Source of the DNA: Spizellomyces punctatus DAOM BR117
Lineage: Eukaryota
Length of the DNA: 64,000 bases
Strand: one strand, 5' to 3'
NCBI GenBank assembly: GCA_000182565.2
Contig: KQ257459.1
Under the pieces are notes generated by a model, which worked only from the letters and a program-made list of their open reading frames with translations, searched no databases and was not told the DNA's origin. Position numbers and translations under genes: made by a program. Each line of letters starts with the position of its first letter. Within the stretch, counting starts at the first letter, position 1. Of this stretch, positions 26,918 through 57,527 are shown in pieces.

Positions 26918-27481
26918 NNNNNNNNNNNNNNNNNNNNNNNNNNNNNNNNNNNNNNNNNNNNNNNNNNNNNNNNNNNNNNNNNNNNNNNNNNNNNNNNNNN
27001 NNNNNNNNNNNNNNNNNNNNNNNNNNNNNNNNNNNNNNNNNNNNNNNNNNNNNNNNNNNNNNNNNNNNNNNNNNNNNNNNNNNNNNNNNNNNNNNNNNNN
27101 NNNNNNNNNNNNNNNNNNNNNNNNNNNNNNNNNNNNNNNNNNNNNNNNNNNNNNNNNNNNNNNNNNNNNNNNNNNNNNNNNNNNNNNNNNNNNNNNNNNN
27201 NNNNNNNNNNNNNNNNNNNNNNNNNNNNNNNNNNNNNNNNNNNNNNNNNNNNNNNNNNNNNNNNNNNNNNNNNNNNNNNNNNNNNNNNNNNNNNNNNNNN
27301 NNNNNNNNNNNNNNNNNNNNNNNNNNNNNNNNNNNNNNNNNNNNNNNNNNNNNNNNNNNNNNNNNNNNNNNNNNNNNNNNNNNNNNNNNNNNNNNNNNNN
27401 NNNNNNNNNNNNNNNNNNNNNNNNNNNNNNNNNNNNNNNNNNNNNNNNNNNNNNNNNNNNNNNNNNNNNNNNNNNNNNNNN
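26918..27481. other. Assembly gap (N run), likely a collapsed tandem array
   Basis: Run of Ns starting inside a tandem repeat. Confidence 0.95.
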
Positions 27482-48428: not shown

Positions 48429-50817
48429 TCAGGCAGAGCAAGCAGCATCTCCAGGCGCCATGCAAAGCATGTATCTATCAAAAAATGCCTGGTAACTCTC
48501 GGTCATATTCAATTCCATCGTCCACTTGACGTCGTAGGCTTCTGTCCGTTCCGCCTTTGGCGAGACATCAGGTGCATGAGCATAGTACGTGCTTTGATCC
48601 GTGTTTACGGGTGCAAGGTTGGGGGACTTTAGATTAAACCGCATGCGCTGCATGAGGATATCCATATCGTGGGCAATACCATCAACGGCCTGGCGAGGGG
48701 TATACCCAACAGCGCGACCCTCTTCTGTGCCGTTGGCCCATACCATGGCTTTGGCCAAGTTCGGAGCCCATACTTGCGCCAGAGCGGGATAGTGAGGAAC
48801 ATTTGTGCCAGTGTCTGGACGTGATAGTGGCAGGTTAAATAACAGTAATGGTTTGAGGTTGCGTAGGCAGTGGTGACGTACCTGTCCATAAATGTCTCAA
48901 TGGACTACGATAGAACTCAACGAGGCCGCCCCAGAATTTGATACGGTCGCTCACGTAGTTGGCATTGATAGCTATAAAGTCAAACAACAGCAAAAGTAGT
49001 TTAAGAGTTTTATCACAAGTAGCCAAAGTGTGAAAATAATCAACGTACTCGACTTTCGGATGGGCGTTCCAGCAACGATGAACCTCTTCAAATCCACAGT
49101 CTTTGAAACGCAAAACTGTGCCCACAACCATGCAGCCTCCAACTGTTTTCCCTTTGTCGTTTTTGGAATACTCCATGCACCACTGTCTTGGTATCCAACT
49201 TTCATGCCGCGATCCCAGTATCGTCCCACAGGGGACGGGGCAACTCTCCACCTCAATTCGCCATTGGAGTTGACGACGGGGGAGGAAATGGATTTATAAT
49301 AGTCTTTGGCGAGGTCGGGAGTGTATTCAAAGATCATTTGGGCAATGTCCCCTCGTGCGGGCTTGGAGCCCGCTGTGAGAAAGTCCCAGTCCAAGGCAGC
49401 AGAAGGAGCGTAGTTGAACATCCATTCAATAGAGCGATTGAGACCGTATTCGGCTGCATATGAGTTCATTGCACCTATAAAAAAGACAAAGGAAAGGTGC
49501 ATTACGCTCCATATCTTCATTATGGGACAATGATGCAAACTAACTTACCACCGCGTTCGACAGAAGCACCGATGGGAACATGATTCACCACCTTGATACC
49601 CCAGTCATCGACACCGGTTCCGTTTACTCCACCATTTGGCAACCCTTTATCATCACTTCCGGCCATTGAAAACCAGGCATCCGTATACCTCCAGCTCATT
49701 GCAGCAGGGCCACCATAAAACGAGGTCAAGTATTTCCATCCGAGCTTTCCGTCCAGGATCTGGAGAGTAGACATGGCACCATAGTCGGCGTGTCCGTAGA
49801 CTGAACGAGCACCATCCCATCCAACCGGGGGCGTATCGCTTGGACGAATGCATTTAGGAATGAGATCGTCGCTATTCAGGAAGCGGCAGCGGTGGCGAAA
49901 CATTTCGGCAATGTCCTCGTAGCTTTTCCAGGTACGGGGGACACCAAGGGTATAGCCGTACGTATCGTTGAAGACGTTCTTGATATCTGGGAATGAAAGT
50001 TAGTTAGGATTACATCTTGCAGGTACGAAAGGGATCATTTCTTGCTCACCGGTATCCGTAAACCAATCATACCGATAAAAGTACAAGTTAACAAACTGCT
50101 GATCCGTCAATTGAATAATATTCCCGTCCAAATCCGAGCCAAAGTAAATGTTCATCCAATCGTTCAAATCAAGGTTGGTCATGTTGGTGACTGGGGCGAG
50201 GAGTGGGTTCATTTCGTAGATTGGGTCACCGTTGCCGTCCACTCCGATTTTGTTGGCGATCGTGTGCAGACGTTGTGAACGGAGATGAAAGCCGTTCGAG
50301 TCGGCATCATGAACTGGTTGAGTAAAAGAACATCGTAAGACTCTTGTATGGATGAAGGTTACTTGGGCAAACACTTACCATAAATGTCAAAGTATCGTTT
50401 TCCTGTACGGATTTGCTCTGTGATGGTGCTCACAAGATTCTACATAAAAGCGCGGTCAATCAAAGGATATCCACCAAGACCAAGCTACACGAAGCATAAA
50501 CTTACTCCTTCATCCATAATAACATGATTGACTTTGATGCCTGTTATATCGCTGAAAGCTCTTGCAAGAGTATCACTTTCATAACTGTGGATTGTGATAC
50601 TCTCGGCGGTTGATTGGACGGTGACACCCTGCAAACCGCGCTCTGCTGCGACGCGCTGAAACCATTCCAGTTCGCTGCGTTGTTGGTCAACGGAGAGGAC
50701 AGATGGACGGAATTCCTCGAGCCATTTTGAGATCACATCTTGGCCAGCAGCATGAGTTGAGGGTGTAGAAAGGAGAAGGGAGGTGGTGAAGAGGCCCAGG
50801 AGCGGTAGGGTATACAT
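48429..50817 (-). CDS. Secreted bacterial-type extracellular solute-binding protein (family 1, GlpV/glycerol-ABC-SBP-like), intron-containing
   Basis: Signal peptide MYTLPLLGLFTTSLLLSTPSTHA. EFRPSVLSVDQQRSELEWF, SYESDTLARAFSDITGIKVNH, DQQFVNLYFYRYDWF, WRYTDAWFSMAG, WRVAPSPVGRYW..GMKVGYQDSGAW and AAWLWAQF resemble proteobacterial carbohydrate ABC SBPs. About six GT-AG introns. Confidence 0.85.
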
Positions 50818-52291
50818 TGGATCAAACTTGTGCTTTTGTTGCCTTGGGTATAGTTTTTTCTACGGTGTTGCAATAAACACCTTGTCGTCAAACTCTACTG
50901 GAGAACTTGCGTTCCTTTTTATTCCACTTGGGGACACTACTTGTTTTGGTCTATCCCTGCTGGAGACGCTCGCTTGATTAGTGTTAGATCCAAATAAGTT
51001 TGCTTGCAGAATGCCACACACTCCGACAATGCTTGTGATGAGATCCCCAGCTGACTTTGACATCTTACTCAAGAATCATTGCAGATGTATTTGTTATGTT
51101 CCCCGTTTGAATGAAAGGAGAACAAAGCAAACTGCCTCCCAATAACGAAGCATCCAGAACATACACCCAAGTTTCCTTTCAAAAATGCATTCTCGTCGCC
51201 ACGCCTTTGTGTGCAAACAACTTCAAATGTCAGAAAATAGGGACCAAAGGGATTGTAGCTTCTTTTTTCCTTACATTCTGGATCATCTTTGTCGCCTCAA
51301 TGTTATTTGCATCTTGCCTCCCATATACCTGCCAACAAGTAATCCTGGGGGACATTAGGGACGCGCCAGAAACCTTCAAAACAAAACAAAACCTAGCTAA
51401 CAACAGGATGTCCGACAAACAAACAGCACCCTTCCATACCGAACTCAATGAAGTATACTAGGGTTATAACGGAGGGTGGCTAGCTACACCATGGGGGTTT
51501 CTGTTTGTGCAGCCAAGTTTATTAAACCGATGTTAATGGCGGACTTTCTTTTTGTAGACAGCACCTTGGTGTCTTTACAAAGAGCGCCAGACAATACAGC
51601 AAGAATACCAAGAGAACCAAGAGATCACTAACAAAAATGTTTTTATTTTTCGTTTGGGTTTTGGAGCGAAATTGGGGGACTTGCACTCAGCGGGCGTTTC
51701 GTCATCTGGAAGGCGCTTCATTTGAAAAGCTGGCGCCTGTTTGACAGGTTGCTTCTACCAAATACAAGACACTCCCAACAAATGTTCGGAGTAAGTGGTC
51801 CGACATATCTTGGTTGAAGGATTGACCAAACAGCACAGTAGGCCCCACTACTAGGTGATGAGCCACTGGATGATATAGGGACTTGTTTGCTTGTTCAATT
51901 CCAGAACAAGGGCCGCCTTCTCACATTTCTAAACCAGAAACCTTCAAGTCGTCCTCACATGACGATCGAAAGATGGAAACGAACAAGAGGCGCCAATTGA
52001 ACAATGAAAAAAACATCAGACCACTTTAGTTTATTTTTCAAGGTTGTCTCCCTGAGGCATCCATACAAAGAAAAACTGTCACCCACAAGCCTCACACAAC
52101 AAGATGCTCCAAGCTGTCCAGCGTATCAGATCTCGCCGAATGCGCCGAATGTAGGAATAGTGGGTGTTATTTAGCTTAATGCCTACACTCGTCTCCCTCC
52201 ATGTCACAAAATTAAAGATTGTTATACCTAAAGTTCAATCGCGTACAATTCAATATCCAATAAGTCAGCAAGAGAAAAAGTAGTCAGCGAG

Positions 52292-55200
52292 ATGTACGGT
52301 CGTATATATCTCGCGGCGGCATTATGGGCACTGGTGCTCCAAAGCGCCGTGGTGCAAATCACGGCTATTCAGCTCTCCTTTTCAGCGTTCAATGAGACTG
52401 CTGGCGATTGGGTCGCCCCGAGGGAGGGCCATGGAATGGTGACGTTGAATCACTCGGTCATTGCGCTGTTTGGTAGGTTCTTTGACCAGTTACGGATTTT
52501 TGGATTCTTGCAATGGCTTGGTTTATTCATCCACTTTTTCGTCTCGCTTCTTAGGGGGCCAGGAAGATAGGTAATGAATGCAGGAAGTTAACAGCCCACC
52601 GAATGCTAAACTAACAATCATCACTTTCAATAGATACATGATGAGCAATGATCTTTTCTTCTTCTACCCCAACTTGGGAACTCACGGAACATGGAAATCC
52701 ATTAACGCAGATCTAACTGGGCCTCTTCCTCCGCCACGATATCACCCAGCCCTAACCGCTGCGGGAAAATCCGACAGCATTCTTGTTCTTCACGGCGGCA
52801 TGAGCGAGGATCTCTCTGCATTGGACGATGTCTGGATTCTAGACACGAGTAAGAGGCCCATGGGATGGCAATCTGTCAATGGATCGGTCGGAGCCCGCTG
52901 GGGACATTCGCTGACAACCGTTTCAGAGGATCTGGTTGTGTTGTTTGGTAAGTGTTTGAAGATTGCCGGTCTCACCTTCGCTCACACATCTTTACGTACT
53001 AGGTGGGTACGACGGGACTTCCTTCTACAACGACATCCGAGCTTTCAACCTGACCACAAAGCAATGGCACACTCCCACAACTCTCAGCGCCAAGCCTTTT
53101 GCACGGGCTTGGCATACAGCCTCCTGGGTTGCCTCGCAAGGAGCACTGATCGTTGTGGGCGGACAAGGACAGGACTGGATGCGGATGGTGGATGTGAATC
53201 ATATTGTGCCAAAAACAAAGGAGTGGGTGGCAATGAACGTGGTCTTTCCGAACTTGGCCGGATCGGTAAGAACATATCCGGAAATGCGTGCGTAAAATTG
53301 GTTGTAAACAGTTTGTTTTTCTGCTTGAAGGAAACACCTGGACCACGGTGCGAACACTACGCGTTTCCGTACTTTGACAGTATCGTTCTTGGAGGAGGTG
53401 TCTCAAACGTTGATCCTGACCCTAGAAAATGTAAGTTACCGGCCACTCCCTTCCTATCGAATGTCTTCCTCACTCACAAAACGACCACCAGATCGCGTCT
53501 TCAAAACCGATCACTGGCTCTACAACGTCACCACCCAAACTTTCTCCCATCTGTCCATTGACAATGTCCAAGAAATTGACAGCAACGATATCGTTCCCGT
53601 CGCACGCCACAATGATCCCGTTACGACTCCTTCTATGGCTGCCAAGGCTAGTCGTGTTGGAACGTCGTTGTTCGTGGTGGGTGGAATGGATAAGTTCTGG
53701 TTGCAGATGGATACGGGTGAGTTATGTCTTTGGTGGTTTTCGTCAAGTAACATAGATAACTGATACGTGTATATTCCCTCTCATCAGTGGCACATCTTTC
53801 CCTTGGATCTGATAGCTGCGAGCCCGGGACAGTGTACGTAAACGCAACAAAAACCTGCGAAGCCTGCCCACCAGGGTCATTCAGTTTCACAGCTGGCGCA
53901 ACCCAGTGTCAACACGCGCCAGCAGGGTACGTTGTAAAACTCAACGGAGGATGGGAACCTGAGGCATGGTGTGTACCATTTGCTTGTGATCATGGATTTC
54001 TTGAACGTGCCTCATCCATGATATGTTGAACATTGTAGCCCAGCTGGAACATTTGCATCGGATACGGGGTCCGTCAGCTGTGTTCCCTGCGCAGCAGAAA
54101 CTTACTCTGATCCTGCAAGTTCCACCTGTAAAGCTTGCCCAACTGGGACAACCACCAACGGGCAGACCGGCGCTGCACAATGCACTTTCGTGAACATCGT
54201 GTACAATGAAAGGGAGGTGGACCAGACGGTTCGCTTGGCTATGACGGTCATTGCAGCGTTATTGGCAACTCTGTCTGCTGTAATTGGGGTCGTAGCCTTT
54301 GTTCAGAGGAAGTCAAAGGTGTTTATTGCCGCTTCTCCGACATTCTTGTACTTGATTGCTCTCGGGGCCGTATTATCGTACCTTGCGGTGCCGGTCAGAT
54401 TCTCGGTCTCGTCCCTGTCGTGCATGGCGTCCGAGTGGTTAAACCATATCGGATTTGGGCTCTTGTTTGGAAGTAAGTTTTTGGAGATAGATTCCGCCTT
54501 TTTGTTCTCCGCTAATGTCAACTCTGTAAACCTCAAGGTCTCTTATTCAAAGCCTACCGCGTCGGCCTCATCTTCAAATCAAAACCTCACAAGCTCATGT
54601 CCCGTTCGCCACTCACGGACCGTAAGCTCCTCATGTACCTCTCTATACTTGTTTCCGTCCTCGTTTGCTACCTCATCGTCTGGACCATCGTTTCTCCCGT
54701 TCGGGTGGACATCATCTCGCAAACTATCGACATCTCTCACGTGGACGAATATCTGGCATGCGAGCAGGGGAAAATTCAGCTGGGAATACTGGGAGTCGAG
54801 CTAGCAATTCTACTTTGGGGAGTTTATGTCGCCCTCCGTATGCGAGGAACTCCATCCGCGTATAACGAAGCACAGTATATCGGGCTTAGTATTTACAACT
54901 TTTTGTTTGTGTGCACTTCGCTAGAGGTTTTACAGAGAACGGTTGTCACAGGTGCCAGTAAGTATTCCTTCTCAGCCAAATAACTTGGACAGGATCTATT
55001 GACTGACTCCTCACCTTTGCACTAATAGATATAGGCTTCATACTCTACTCGGTCCGTATCTTTGTCTCTGTCACAGGAGTTATTGGCCTCATTTTCGGGC
55101 CCAAACTGGTCAAAGTCGGCTTCAACCTATCGGGAAGTAGCACCAAAGGAAGCGACAGTGACGACAATAGCGATTCGGAACCATCGGTTTCCAAAGCTTT

Positions 55201-55384
55201 TGGAGGCCCCAGTACGATTCTGCGATCGGGTGGCAATCCTGTTGGTTTGACCCGGTCAACGACAAGTGGCGGCGCAGCTCCAAACGAATCGTTGAACAGG
55301 CATGGGGGTTCCGCCAATGTTGGTTCCGTTCTTCCGGCTGGAGCGATGAAAAGTGCCGCGATATCCTCTCAAGAGGTTTCCTAG
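52292..55384 (+). CDS. Class C (GABA-B-like, 7tm_3) GPCR with N-terminal Kelch repeats and Cys-rich GCC2/GCC3-type stalk
   Basis: Signal peptide; Kelch-type motifs (PREGHGM, PPRYHPA…LHGG…DDVW, ARWGHS…LFG|GYDG, ARAWHTA…VGG); CEPGT…CEACPPGSFS repeats; 7tm_3 motifs AASPTFLYLI, IGFGLLFG|LLFKAYRV, LTDRKLL, PSAYNEAQYIGLSIYN, FGPK; stop 55382-55384. Confidence 0.85.
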
Positions 55385-56098
55385 ATAAGGATGCAATAAG
55401 TAAAAGTTACACGGCCGTTGCGCCTACTTTGTGGTAAACGTCAGAATATATACCCAGTTTTCTATCTATCCTGTTTTCTTGTTACAGAGGTCGACTTGTT
55501 ATCCTTAAATGCAGGCAAACCTGGCAAATGTCCAGATTCAAGCAAACCGGTATAAAAATACGCAAAGGACATGTGAGTCATTAGCAAAATTTATTGACTA
55601 ATTACTATAAAGTTAAAATAATGGTAAATCCAACGCGAGGCCGAGAGAAATAATGCAGGGACGAATAACGTCGGCGATGCCTCTGGGATGATATTATTGG
55701 GGCTGGTGATGGACGATATAAGGGAATTACAGTAAAGGGAAAACAACAATGTTACTGGGCTGACCACCAGGTTCGCTAACCTAACTTCAAAATGGATGAT
55801 ACTGAAAAACATTGAGTCTCGGAAGGCACTACAAAAAGAAACGTAACTGCAAGAGTGCTAGTCTTTAAGGCAACCGTTTGTGACTTTCAATTCCATTTCC
55901 CCGCCAAAGGTATGAAATTGTGTCAGAACGAACGCTTGCAAGAAAAGAGGAAACTCTCAAAATGCAACACCAAAATGGAATGATTTGCATCTACTTTATT
56001 CTTGTCAAATTAAAGATTTTGTCAAGCAATTTTCGAGCAACTAAATGAGCAATGACATTTTGTATAATTTCGAGATCATAACCTCTCTCCACATCGAT

Positions 56099-56548
56099 TT
56101 AGAAAACCTTGGGTCTTTCCAACTTGTCAAACTGCACAACGACAAACGCACGTCAGTTTCAATAAAGCAGAAATACTACATGAGAACAAGTTATCGTTAC
56201 CTTTTGGTTCACAGCATACAATTTGAGGTTCTTGTCAGGCGTAACGTGGAGCCAAGGGTATGGGTTGCCCTTCTTGTTCGTTAGGACAACAGTGGGGTCA
56301 TTTCGCAGAAAATGCTACGTCGAAAGCGTCAGCTACTACCTGCAGGCAACTCTGCGCAGGCAACACACTACTCACCGTTACCATAAAGGCCCCAGCGCCC
56401 AATCCTGCGCCGACTGCGCCGACAAGAAGGACCAATGGTGGGTTTGCCTTGAGGTGAGCACCGATTCTGCTCATAACAATTCAGCCCAGTCCTTTATGTG
56501 GCTGTCAAGCGGGCAAGCGGCAAAGCGTGTGACTAATACATACCTCAT
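56099..56548 (-). CDS. NDUFA4/B12D-like (MLRQ) small mitochondrial membrane protein
   Basis: Spliced product RIGAHLKANPPLVLLVGAVGAGLGAGAFM…HFLRNDPTVVLTNKKGNPYPWLHVTPDKNLKLYAVNQK|FDKLERPKVF; TATA at ~56684; alternative start 56474. Confidence 0.8.
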
Positions 56549-57527
56549 GTCAGCAAACTGTGATATTTGAAAGGAATTCAAAGGGAGATCGAAGCGAAAT
56601 CGATGAGGAAAAAGCGGATGAAAAAACTCAACAAGAGGACGACGTGGTTGACCTCTGCTGGGGGGGAAGCGAAGCCATCTCCTTTTTATAAGCGACAACA
56701 ACACACACACTCACAACACACTAGAAATGGGAGAAGGGGGGCTGCTGATGAAATGTGTACCTGTGATTTTAAGCCCAAAAGGAAGCAGTTTGGAACACTA
56801 ATAACATGACTGTGCCACTGTTCACTTGAAGTGGGATATTTGTGGGGGGGACGAAACCTACACAACGCGCCTCCTCAAGCAGTCAGGTGGTGGTTGGAGA
56901 ATGGGACTGGAGGAGAGATGGGGGGGCAACAGGGGGAAAAGGCTTTTGGGATGTTAGCGATTTGTTTTGTTATTTTGCCTTTGTTTTGTTAAAAAGTAAA
57001 GGGAAAGTTTGGTTGATGGGGCGAAGCGCCTAAATATTGACGAAATCGTGAGCATCAACGCAATTTCAGTTTGGAGATTGGGGAAACAAGGCGTATAATA
57101 CGCAGGCTTTTGACATTGATCGTTCGCCTGCTGTTTGTAGCTAATGAGATTTGGCATTTGCTTCCGAATGGCGCGCGCTCGAACAGTGCTGCGCTTCAGA
57201 TCACAAAATTGCCTAGAATATCAAATACCATACTGGAGCTCCAACACCAAAAATGTCTTTGTGGTTCAAAAACATTGCGACTGTAGCCTTGAATGCGCAT
57301 TTTGCGCATTTGGCCTCCAATAACAACCCTTAGAAACTAGCTTCTTATGTGGTATTTATGTATTGACCATTTGACATTGCAAGCTTAAGCATGGGCAACC
57401 CATATAGCAGTCATGTCCGATAATCTACAGTAGGGTAGCGAGAGCACAAATGTGCATATGTCAACCTCAGGACTGGACCATATCAATTTTGAATTTAACT
57501 AAACCCCTACATACAGAGTACACCCCT

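Follow-up and report, generated by a model that had tools for sequence, protein, structure and literature searches.

Two adjacent, divergently oriented genes were analyzed in a 64,000-nucleotide stretch of contig KQ257459.1 of the chytrid fungus Spizellomyces punctatus DAOM BR117 (assembly GCA_000182565.2); this whole stretch is referred to as the window. One gene encodes a solute-binding protein (SBP) of a bacterial family, and the other encodes a class C G protein-coupled receptor (GPCR) with a Kelch ectodomain. The SBP gene appears to have been acquired from bacteria by horizontal transfer, its closest bacterial relatives are mostly encoded beside membrane sensors rather than transporters, and both chytrid genes are transcribed. 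In our judgment the two are probably separate genes, namely, a domesticated bacterial SBP that would work with a membrane partner and a Kelch GPCR that does its own sensing, each being only a candidate partner for its neighbor. The gene structures, homologies, phylogeny, bacterial gene contexts, and transcription on which this explanation draws were observed directly.

The exons of both genes in the window match the annotated S. punctatus DAOM BR117 proteins P0124 (SBP) and P0125 (receptor) letter for letter; in the coordinates given here, exon ends may extend a few bases past the exact-match stretches where a codon is split. The SBP gene starts with an ATG at 50817, ends with a stop codon at 48429-48431, and is interrupted by introns of 60 to 80 nt. 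Its features are as follows.

48429..50817, minus strand: SBP gene (P0124, 658 aa, annotated "ABC-type sugar transport system"), 7 exons and 6 introns
50817-50506, 50439-50380, 50314-50051, 49987-49547, 49472-49050, 48969-48883, and 48815-48432, then stop, minus strand: SBP exon stretches, exact match to P0124
50749..50817, minus strand: predicted signal peptide, residues 1-23, from sequence inspection, with a short h-region judged by eye
49706..49888, minus strand: two chytrid-specific inserts, residues 246-265 and 286-306, from the alignment with bacterial homologues

P0124 is a secreted-type SBP of a bacterial family, with a modeled two-lobed periplasmic-binding-protein fold. It was identified as such because its full-length identity to 62 bacterial homologues is 46 to 51% and because its ESM Atlas model (predicted template modeling [TM] score, 0.85) aligned with bacterial SBP_bac_1/8 clusters at TM scores of 0.79 to 0.80 over ∼550 residues. 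Single SBP exons gave no matches in Pfam or NCBIfam, and the whole of P0124 scored 19 bits against SBP_bac_8, under the 27-bit cutoff, which the P0124 homologue P0003 passed at 39.3 bits. A PDB search with P0124 alone gave no matches, and an alignment profile of P0124 and its homologues matched the solved sugar SBP 5iai_A at 1.1e-11. P0124 retains 115 of the 132 columns that are invariant across the bacterial set and is 54% identical to the SBP of Borealophlyctis. The two inserts, of 20 aa each, are missing in >90% of the 62 bacterial homologues, and the mature protein has six N-X-S/T sequons and five cysteines. The ligand may be a polyol or a sugar, as the homology-derived name suggests. A preliminary description of this DNA had proposed a free secreted-type SBP of a sugar/polyol family, and in this it was right. 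The signal peptides that it assigned to both proteins hold as predictions, there being a hydrophobic stretch at each N-terminus.

Among the 120 best matches listed in a search with an SBP exon, the fungal ones formed two clusters, Spizellomyces (both species) and Borealophlyctis; the other source-named matches were all bacterial, many of them named "glycerol transport system substrate-binding protein," and most matches were unnamed metagenome proteins. The exon is 99% identical to a protein of Spizellomyces sp. 'palustris'. The chytrid SBP is known from three assemblies in two orders, Spizellomycetales and Rhizophlyctidales. A metagenome scan for further chytrid SBP loci yielded 7 loci, all of them uninterrupted, 37 to 41% identical, and bacterial-like, and no chytrid locus.

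Phylogenetic analysis of 29 rows under LG+C20+F+G4, with 12 classic transporter-linked SBPs as the root, grouped the three chytrid SBPs in one clade (support, 100/100), and a single old transfer is therefore the simplest account of their origin. This clade nested within a clade of 13 rows (98/99) and lay outside the classic transporter clade (100/100 split). Eight of the 10 bacterial members of the 13-row clade are sensor-linked, 1 has neither sensor nor transporter genes nearby, and 1 (L004) is ABC-linked, in a locus with two SBP paralogues. To judge from these sequence comparisons, the SBP gene is a horizontal acquisition from bacteria.

For a fungal gene product, the SBP has very high identity to bacterial proteins, as would be expected if the gene were bacterial contamination, a misassembly, or a dead relic. 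We give such an artifact practically no credence. Contamination is ruled out because the gene has six introns, eukaryotic neighbors, and orthologues in three chytrid assemblies. Three of the introns were confirmed by spliced RNA contigs, the gene lies on one contig with the eukaryotic SF3B3/RSE1-like gene and the GPCR gene at its flanks, two of the orthologues come from further chytrid assemblies, and the reading frame is open, with the invariant residues retained to the extent given above. Splicing and synteny had thus already refuted the artifact reading.

A set of 80 bacterial SBP loci was fetched, and their flanks were scored by local searches with a permease window of 6 kb. Permeases of the BPD_transp_1 type were found within 6 kb in 65 of the 80 loci, usually accompanied by two ATPases and frequently by GlpD/GlpK-like genes. 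Signaling genes without a permease were found in 11 loci, and neither kind of gene was found in 4, 2 of which are on short contigs. In the clade that contains the chytrid SBPs, 8 of the 10 bacterial members had no ABC permeases nearby and adjoined membrane sensor genes, and in 7 of them the SBP gene was directly upstream of a HAMP sensor. In six loci (L001, L002, L003, L005, L011, and L041) the sensor gene directly follows the SBP gene, the junction ranging between an overlap of 13 bp and a gap of 66 bp. Downstream of the SBP gene in L007 is instead a gene for a Cache-HAMP-SpoIIE protein. The six downstream sensors consist of a first transmembrane helix (TM1), ∼340 periplasmic residues, a second helix (TM2), and a HAMP domain, followed by histidine kinase or GAF modules, and some of the histidine kinases carry receiver and Hpt domains. 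The genes with the ∼340-aa periplasmic sensor domain, whose outputs are a hybrid histidine kinase, a plain kinase, or GAF, are the following.

L001, 6447-7646: sensor gene
L002, 7668-8867: sensor gene
L003, 5006-6205: sensor gene
L005, 7703-8902: sensor gene
L041, 7713-8852: sensor gene
L011, 1785-2660: sensor gene, on a contig that stops after 292 aa of the sensor, before TM2 and HAMP

The periplasmic parts of the six sensors are homologous to one another (phmmer, 1e-15 to 1e-103), and searched against Pfam at E values up to 1 they returned noise only and no family. The bacterial relatives of the chytrid SBP thus define a recurring pair, an SBP and a sensor with an unnamed periplasmic domain of ∼340 aa. 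SBP-activated sensor kinases are often encoded beside the sbp gene, as noted in a passage of PMC11113362. Because of this habit, and because the chytrid SBPs nest in the sensor-linked clade, the gene neighborhoods suggest that the transferred gene encoded a signaling SBP rather than a transport SBP.

Several other arrangements were seen among the bacterial proteins and loci. In the bacterial proteins P0016 and P0020 (833 and 838 aa), the large SBP is fused to a C-terminal binding domain of the Phosphonate-bd type. Small SBP_bac_3-like genes adjoin the large SBP gene in L004 and L006. In classic loci for glycerol ABC transport, from Thalassospira and Pseudomonas, a gene for a methyl-accepting chemotaxis protein (L045:7874-10177 and L015:12512-13549) lies just downstream of the SBP gene or at most 5 kb from it.

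The history that best explains these observations probably begins with one transfer of a bacterial SBP gene into an ancestor of Spizellomycetales and Rhizophlyctidales. During its domestication the gene would have gained a signal peptide, six spliceosomal introns, the two 20-aa inserts, and N-glycosylation sequons. The chytrid protein would be secreted into the wall space, where it presumably still binds a small polar solute, and it may pass information, less likely the solute itself, to a membrane partner.

The neighboring gene encodes a receptor with the following features.

52292..55384, plus strand: class C GPCR gene (P0125, 829 aa, SPPG_05818), ∼10 exons including a 16-nt micro-exon
52292-52474, micro-exon ∼52555-52570, 52632-52949, 53005-53265, 53331-53429, 53494-53715, 53787-53966, 54040-54474, 54540-54956, and 55031-55381, then stop, plus strand: receptor exon stretches, exact match to P0125
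52427..53691, plus strand, intron-interrupted: Kelch beta-propeller ectodomain, residues 46-358 (Pfam)
53817..54171, plus strand: two Cys-rich Ephrin_rec_like/TNFR-like modules, residues 377-413 and 430-471 (Pfam)
54217..55105, plus strand: 7tm_3 transmembrane domain, residues 487-737 (Pfam)

The N-terminus of P0125 is hydrophobic at residues 5-23 (1.88 on a Kyte-Doolittle window). Pfam placed Kelch_KLHDC2_KLHL20_DRC7 at residues 46-281 (3.6e-55) and Beta-prop_ATRN-LZTR1 at residues 84-358, and an ESM Atlas model of residues 26-370 had TM scores of 0.82 to 0.83 to Kelch propellers. Ephrin_rec_like (38.2 bits; cutoff, 23.1) was matched twice, giving a Cys-rich stalk before TM1, and NCD3G reached 29.2 bits, under its cutoff of 38.9. 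The seven-transmembrane (7TM) domain matched 7tm_3 over model positions 3-251 of 251 (6.3e-45, 154 bits; cutoff, 33.5). The nearest solved 7TM chains were those of GPR158 (1.1e-18) and GABA-B2 (2.2e-17), and also GPR179, with metabotropic glutamate (mGlu) receptor chains within 1e-18 to 1e-10. No ANF_receptor domain (Venus flytrap) or other binding-protein domain was found by Pfam in full-length P0125. The Pfam matches and the Atlas model thus bear out the earlier assignment of a class C GPCR in which the flytrap is replaced by a Kelch propeller.

A word-based search for receptor relatives returned the congener and two weak matches only. Relatives were taken from a HMMER search with the congener receptor P0121, which is 93% identical to P0125. 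Of the 150 best matches listed, 46 carry a 7TM domain, and 41 of these were scanned against Pfam, the other five being fragments of <450 aa. The ectodomains were ANF_receptor in 11, OpuAC in 2, GPR158-type in 7, LamG/Pentaxin in 4, 5'-nucleotidase in 2, Kelch in 2, RCC1 in 1, beta-helix in 1, Cys-rich modules only in 4, and nothing recognized in 7. ANF_receptor was absent from 30 of the 41 and any binding-protein domain from 28, so that flytrap-less class C receptors are common among the kin of P0125. The two Kelch ectodomains belong to HK104_008594 of Borealophlyctis nickersoniae (P0128) and to P0186, which comes from a transcriptome. A search for fusions revealed no P0124-like domain in the 150 best listed relatives. 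Most simply, the receptor would sense through its own Kelch propeller and Cys-rich stalk, a mode assumed for the many other class C receptors that lack a flytrap. Another transcriptome protein, the class C GPCR P0123 (1310 aa), combines 7tm_3 with Cys-rich Ephrin_rec_like/TNFR-like modules and two domains of the Phosphonate-bd family (type II SBP); it has the stalk type of the chytrid receptor, there joined to a fused SBP.

The start codons of the SBP and receptor genes are 1474 bp apart (ATG to ATG), and the two genes diverge from the region between them, just as had been described from the sequence (∼1.47 kb).

50818..52291, no strand: divergent intergenic region, 1474 bp, 43% G+C

RNA depth in this spacer is near zero. 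It gave no match in an Rfam scan and trivial repeats only in a repeat scan, and a 116-aa open reading frame (ORF) within it (51111-51458) had no Pfam match. The head-to-head arrangement is a fact at the level of the genus: the pair is adjacent in two Spizellomyces species, S. punctatus and S. 'palustris' (g01801/g01802). In Borealophlyctis, the SBP gene (HK104_006378) is on a contig of 25,449 bp and the best Kelch-7TM homologue (HK104_008594) is on another of 82,113 bp, with locus tags 2216 apart. Conservation of the pair, which the preliminary description had put forward as a check, was found in the congener; in Borealophlyctis the genes, as annotated, lie on different contigs.

Both genes are transcribed, and the SBP transcript is spliced. 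In one raw RNA run with the same species label, which was 3'-biased, was read to ∼6%, and gives no basis for inferring coregulation, the sense depth at the 3' end was 133 for the SBP gene, 39 to 68 for the receptor gene, and 55 for the SF3B3-like gene. Two root metatranscriptomes contained spliced contigs 100% identical to the genes. Together they confirmed the SBP junctions 48814^48882, 48971^49049, and 49472^49547, and one of them confirmed the receptor junction 52946^53002. Low-level antisense RNA (depth, 1 to 6) covered the 5' part of the receptor gene on the minus strand (52010-53679) in the raw run.

The two genes are likely to be independent because the Borealophlyctis genes are on different contigs and because 28 of the 41 nearest 7TM relatives of the receptor have no binding-protein domain. 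Several points weigh against independence. Kelch propellers are typically protein-binding modules, and the SBP and receptor genes agree in their narrow known distribution. In Borealophlyctis, the N-terminus is missing from the receptor model (616 aa), and the two genes might be adjacent across contig ends. S. punctatus has ∼9000 genes; with 14 receptors, a class C GPCR would be the immediate neighbor of ∼0.3% of genes by chance, a figure to be read in the knowledge that the pair was picked post hoc and that any membrane protein would have looked suggestive. The 14 receptors are the Glutamate-family GPCRs counted for S. punctatus in the text of PMC3251606. Fusions of class C 7TM domains with type II SBP domains occur in Allomyces and gut fungi and serve, at the level of the family, as a "Rosetta stone" pointing to a functional link (parts of PMC3251606 and PMC5168858).

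Alternatively, the pair may be a split class C receptor, in which the liganded SBP docks on the Kelch/Cys-rich ectodomain of the neighboring GPCR and activates it, with both genes served by a shared divergent promoter. The head-to-head pair in S. 'palustris', the descent of the SBP from a sensor-coupled bacterial clade, the expression of both genes in the same RNA run and their presence in one root metatranscriptome, and the improbability of a class C neighbor by chance all speak for it, as do the SBP-7TM fusions of other zoosporic fungi (described in portions of PMC3251606 and PMC5168858). Yet the annotated Borealophlyctis genes are unlinked; S. 'palustris' is 93 to 97% identical, so that synteny there is little informative; the 1474-bp spacer is roomy enough for two separate promoters; the 150 best listed receptor relatives include no P0124-like fusion; and flytrap-less class C receptors are common and presumed to sense directly. 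To our knowledge, docking on a Kelch domain has no precedent among SBPs. The split receptor is distinctly unlikely in our estimate, and so is the docking of the SBP on the neighboring Kelch domain, which the preliminary description had proposed. A shade more doubtful is the broader idea that a bacterial sensor-type SBP was recruited as the detachable ligand-binding subunit of a Kelch class C GPCR, which would make the pair a eukaryotic counterpart of SBP-dependent bacterial sensors and a living "unfused" stage of class C origin. A scavenging or sequestering SBP, which would concentrate its ligand (glycerol, a polyol, or a sugar) at the cell surface for uptake by ordinary eukaryotic permeases with no signaling and no link to the GPCR, has a small chance of being correct. 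It would suit the wider family, which consists of SBPs of glycerol ABC importers (with permeases in most of the 80 loci and often GlpD/GlpK-like genes), and the high conservation of the family-invariant residues, and PMC5168858 proposes such a role for the orphan SBPs that gut fungi carry. However, the chytrid clade nests among sensor-linked, not transporter-linked, SBPs, and it is unclear what benefit a freely diffusing binder would bring without a dedicated acceptor. Two separate genes, with the SBP serving a membrane partner, remain the probable reading.

The 64-kb window is eukaryotic, with short introns and a single run of N at 26918-27481. It also contains the following genes.

ends near 47.6 kb: SF3B3/RSE1-like gene, eukaryotic, flank on the SBP side
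57.5-59.6 kb: RhoGEF gene, eukaryotic, flank
21-25 kb: exporter-type ABC gene (ABC_membrane and ABC_tran), the sole ABC gene in the window

No ABC permease or ATPase partner genes for the SBP were found in the window. None of the 133 window ORFs scanned (of 152 with at least 100 aa; of the others, 18 lie inside the two genes and 1 elsewhere) matched the BPD_transp_1 permease, and tblastn of the window with 4 bacterial permeases found nothing, in keeping with the earlier statement that no ABC permease is near the SBP. The SBP and receptor genes themselves were scanned against Pfam separately, as 13 stop-to-stop pieces. When the window was compared with the periplasmic domains of the bacterial sensors and with permeases, nothing fell below an E value of 0.2 except the generic ABC ATPase of the exporter gene, at 22-25 kb. 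Between the receptor and RhoGEF genes, a small and very highly expressed gene was seen on the minus strand (55981-56700; RNA depth up to 2647), with three confirmed introns (56131^56201, 56314^56376, and 56466^56544) and a poly(A) site at 55981. Its joined frame encodes ∼81 aa, including one hydrophobic helix, and we take the protein, by eye, to resemble the NDUFA4/B12D family of respiratory-chain subunits.

Free SBPs that report to membrane receptors are familiar from bacteria, in systems such as LuxP-LuxQ, TorT-TorS, ChvE-VirA, and MBP-Tar. The receptor of such SBP-stimulated sensors is encoded next door (PMC8050422, a review, in part), an arrangement that the bacterial relatives of the chytrid SBP share; in contrast, the candidate receptor in the chytrid is eukaryotic and joins a 7TM domain to a Kelch ectodomain. 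A glycerol ABC system with a GlpV-type SBP occurs in Rhizobium, and JGI matches of the SBP exon bear this KEGG-style name. The GlpV-type SBP is of the same family as the chytrid protein, ∼40% identical, and equal in length class once the chytrid inserts are set aside, but the chytrid SBP branches outside the clade of classic transporters, and no permease was found in the window. GPR158 and GPR179, like P0125, are class C receptors without a flytrap, and their 7TM domains are the closest solved ones, but they are animal proteins with an ectodomain that is Cache-like rather than Kelch (from a portion of PMC8611064).

Orphan bacterial-type SBPs of zoosporic fungi were already known. As stated in parts of one study (Seppala et al. 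2016, PMC5168858), anaerobic gut fungi have isolated bacterial-type type II SBPs without importer parts, for which a horizontal origin is suspected and sugar sequestering or zoospore guidance has been speculated; the same parts mention ∼100 class C GPCRs with noncanonical ectodomains in gut fungi and say that eukaryotes lack SBP-dependent importers. Like the chytrid SBP, these proteins are sugar SBPs of bacterial type in a zoosporic fungus, and no ABC importer parts were found with them. They differ in phylum and SBP subfamily, many have a transmembrane helix, and PMC5168858 reports no receptor neighbor or link to a sensor clade. Class C GPCRs fused to SBPs, which the preliminary description had cited for early-diverging fungi, are indeed documented in portions of PMC3251606 and PMC5168858. 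The type II SBP ectodomains of fungal class C GPCRs include SBP_bac_1, OpuAC, LysR_substrate, and PBP_like_2 (Krishnan et al. 2012, PMC3251606, in part). The fused receptors of Allomyces and S. punctatus belong to the same receptor family and organism group as P0125, whereas in the present pair a separate gene encodes the SBP and the receptor has a propeller as its own ectodomain. The main text of PMC3251606 never uses the word "Kelch," and the main text of a survey of gene transfer in early fungi (PMC11291939) does not contain this SBP, although the supplements of either paper may list either gene. No paper combining 7tm_3, Kelch, and GPCR was found. New here are the SBP as a horizontal acquisition, its nesting in a sensor-linked bacterial clade, and the transcription of both chytrid genes. 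The split receptor is a testable hypothesis for which these results add one new argument in support and one against.

Class C GPCRs are believed to be the product of a fusion between a bacterial-type binding protein and a 7TM core. If the two parts do still work as separate proteins in S. punctatus, the fusion step of class C evolution would be open to experiment in a chytrid, and S. punctatus has been reported to be transformable. Even if the pair is functionally unlinked, a bacterial SBP, apparently of the signaling type, has persisted under visible constraint from a time before the two chytrid orders diverged.

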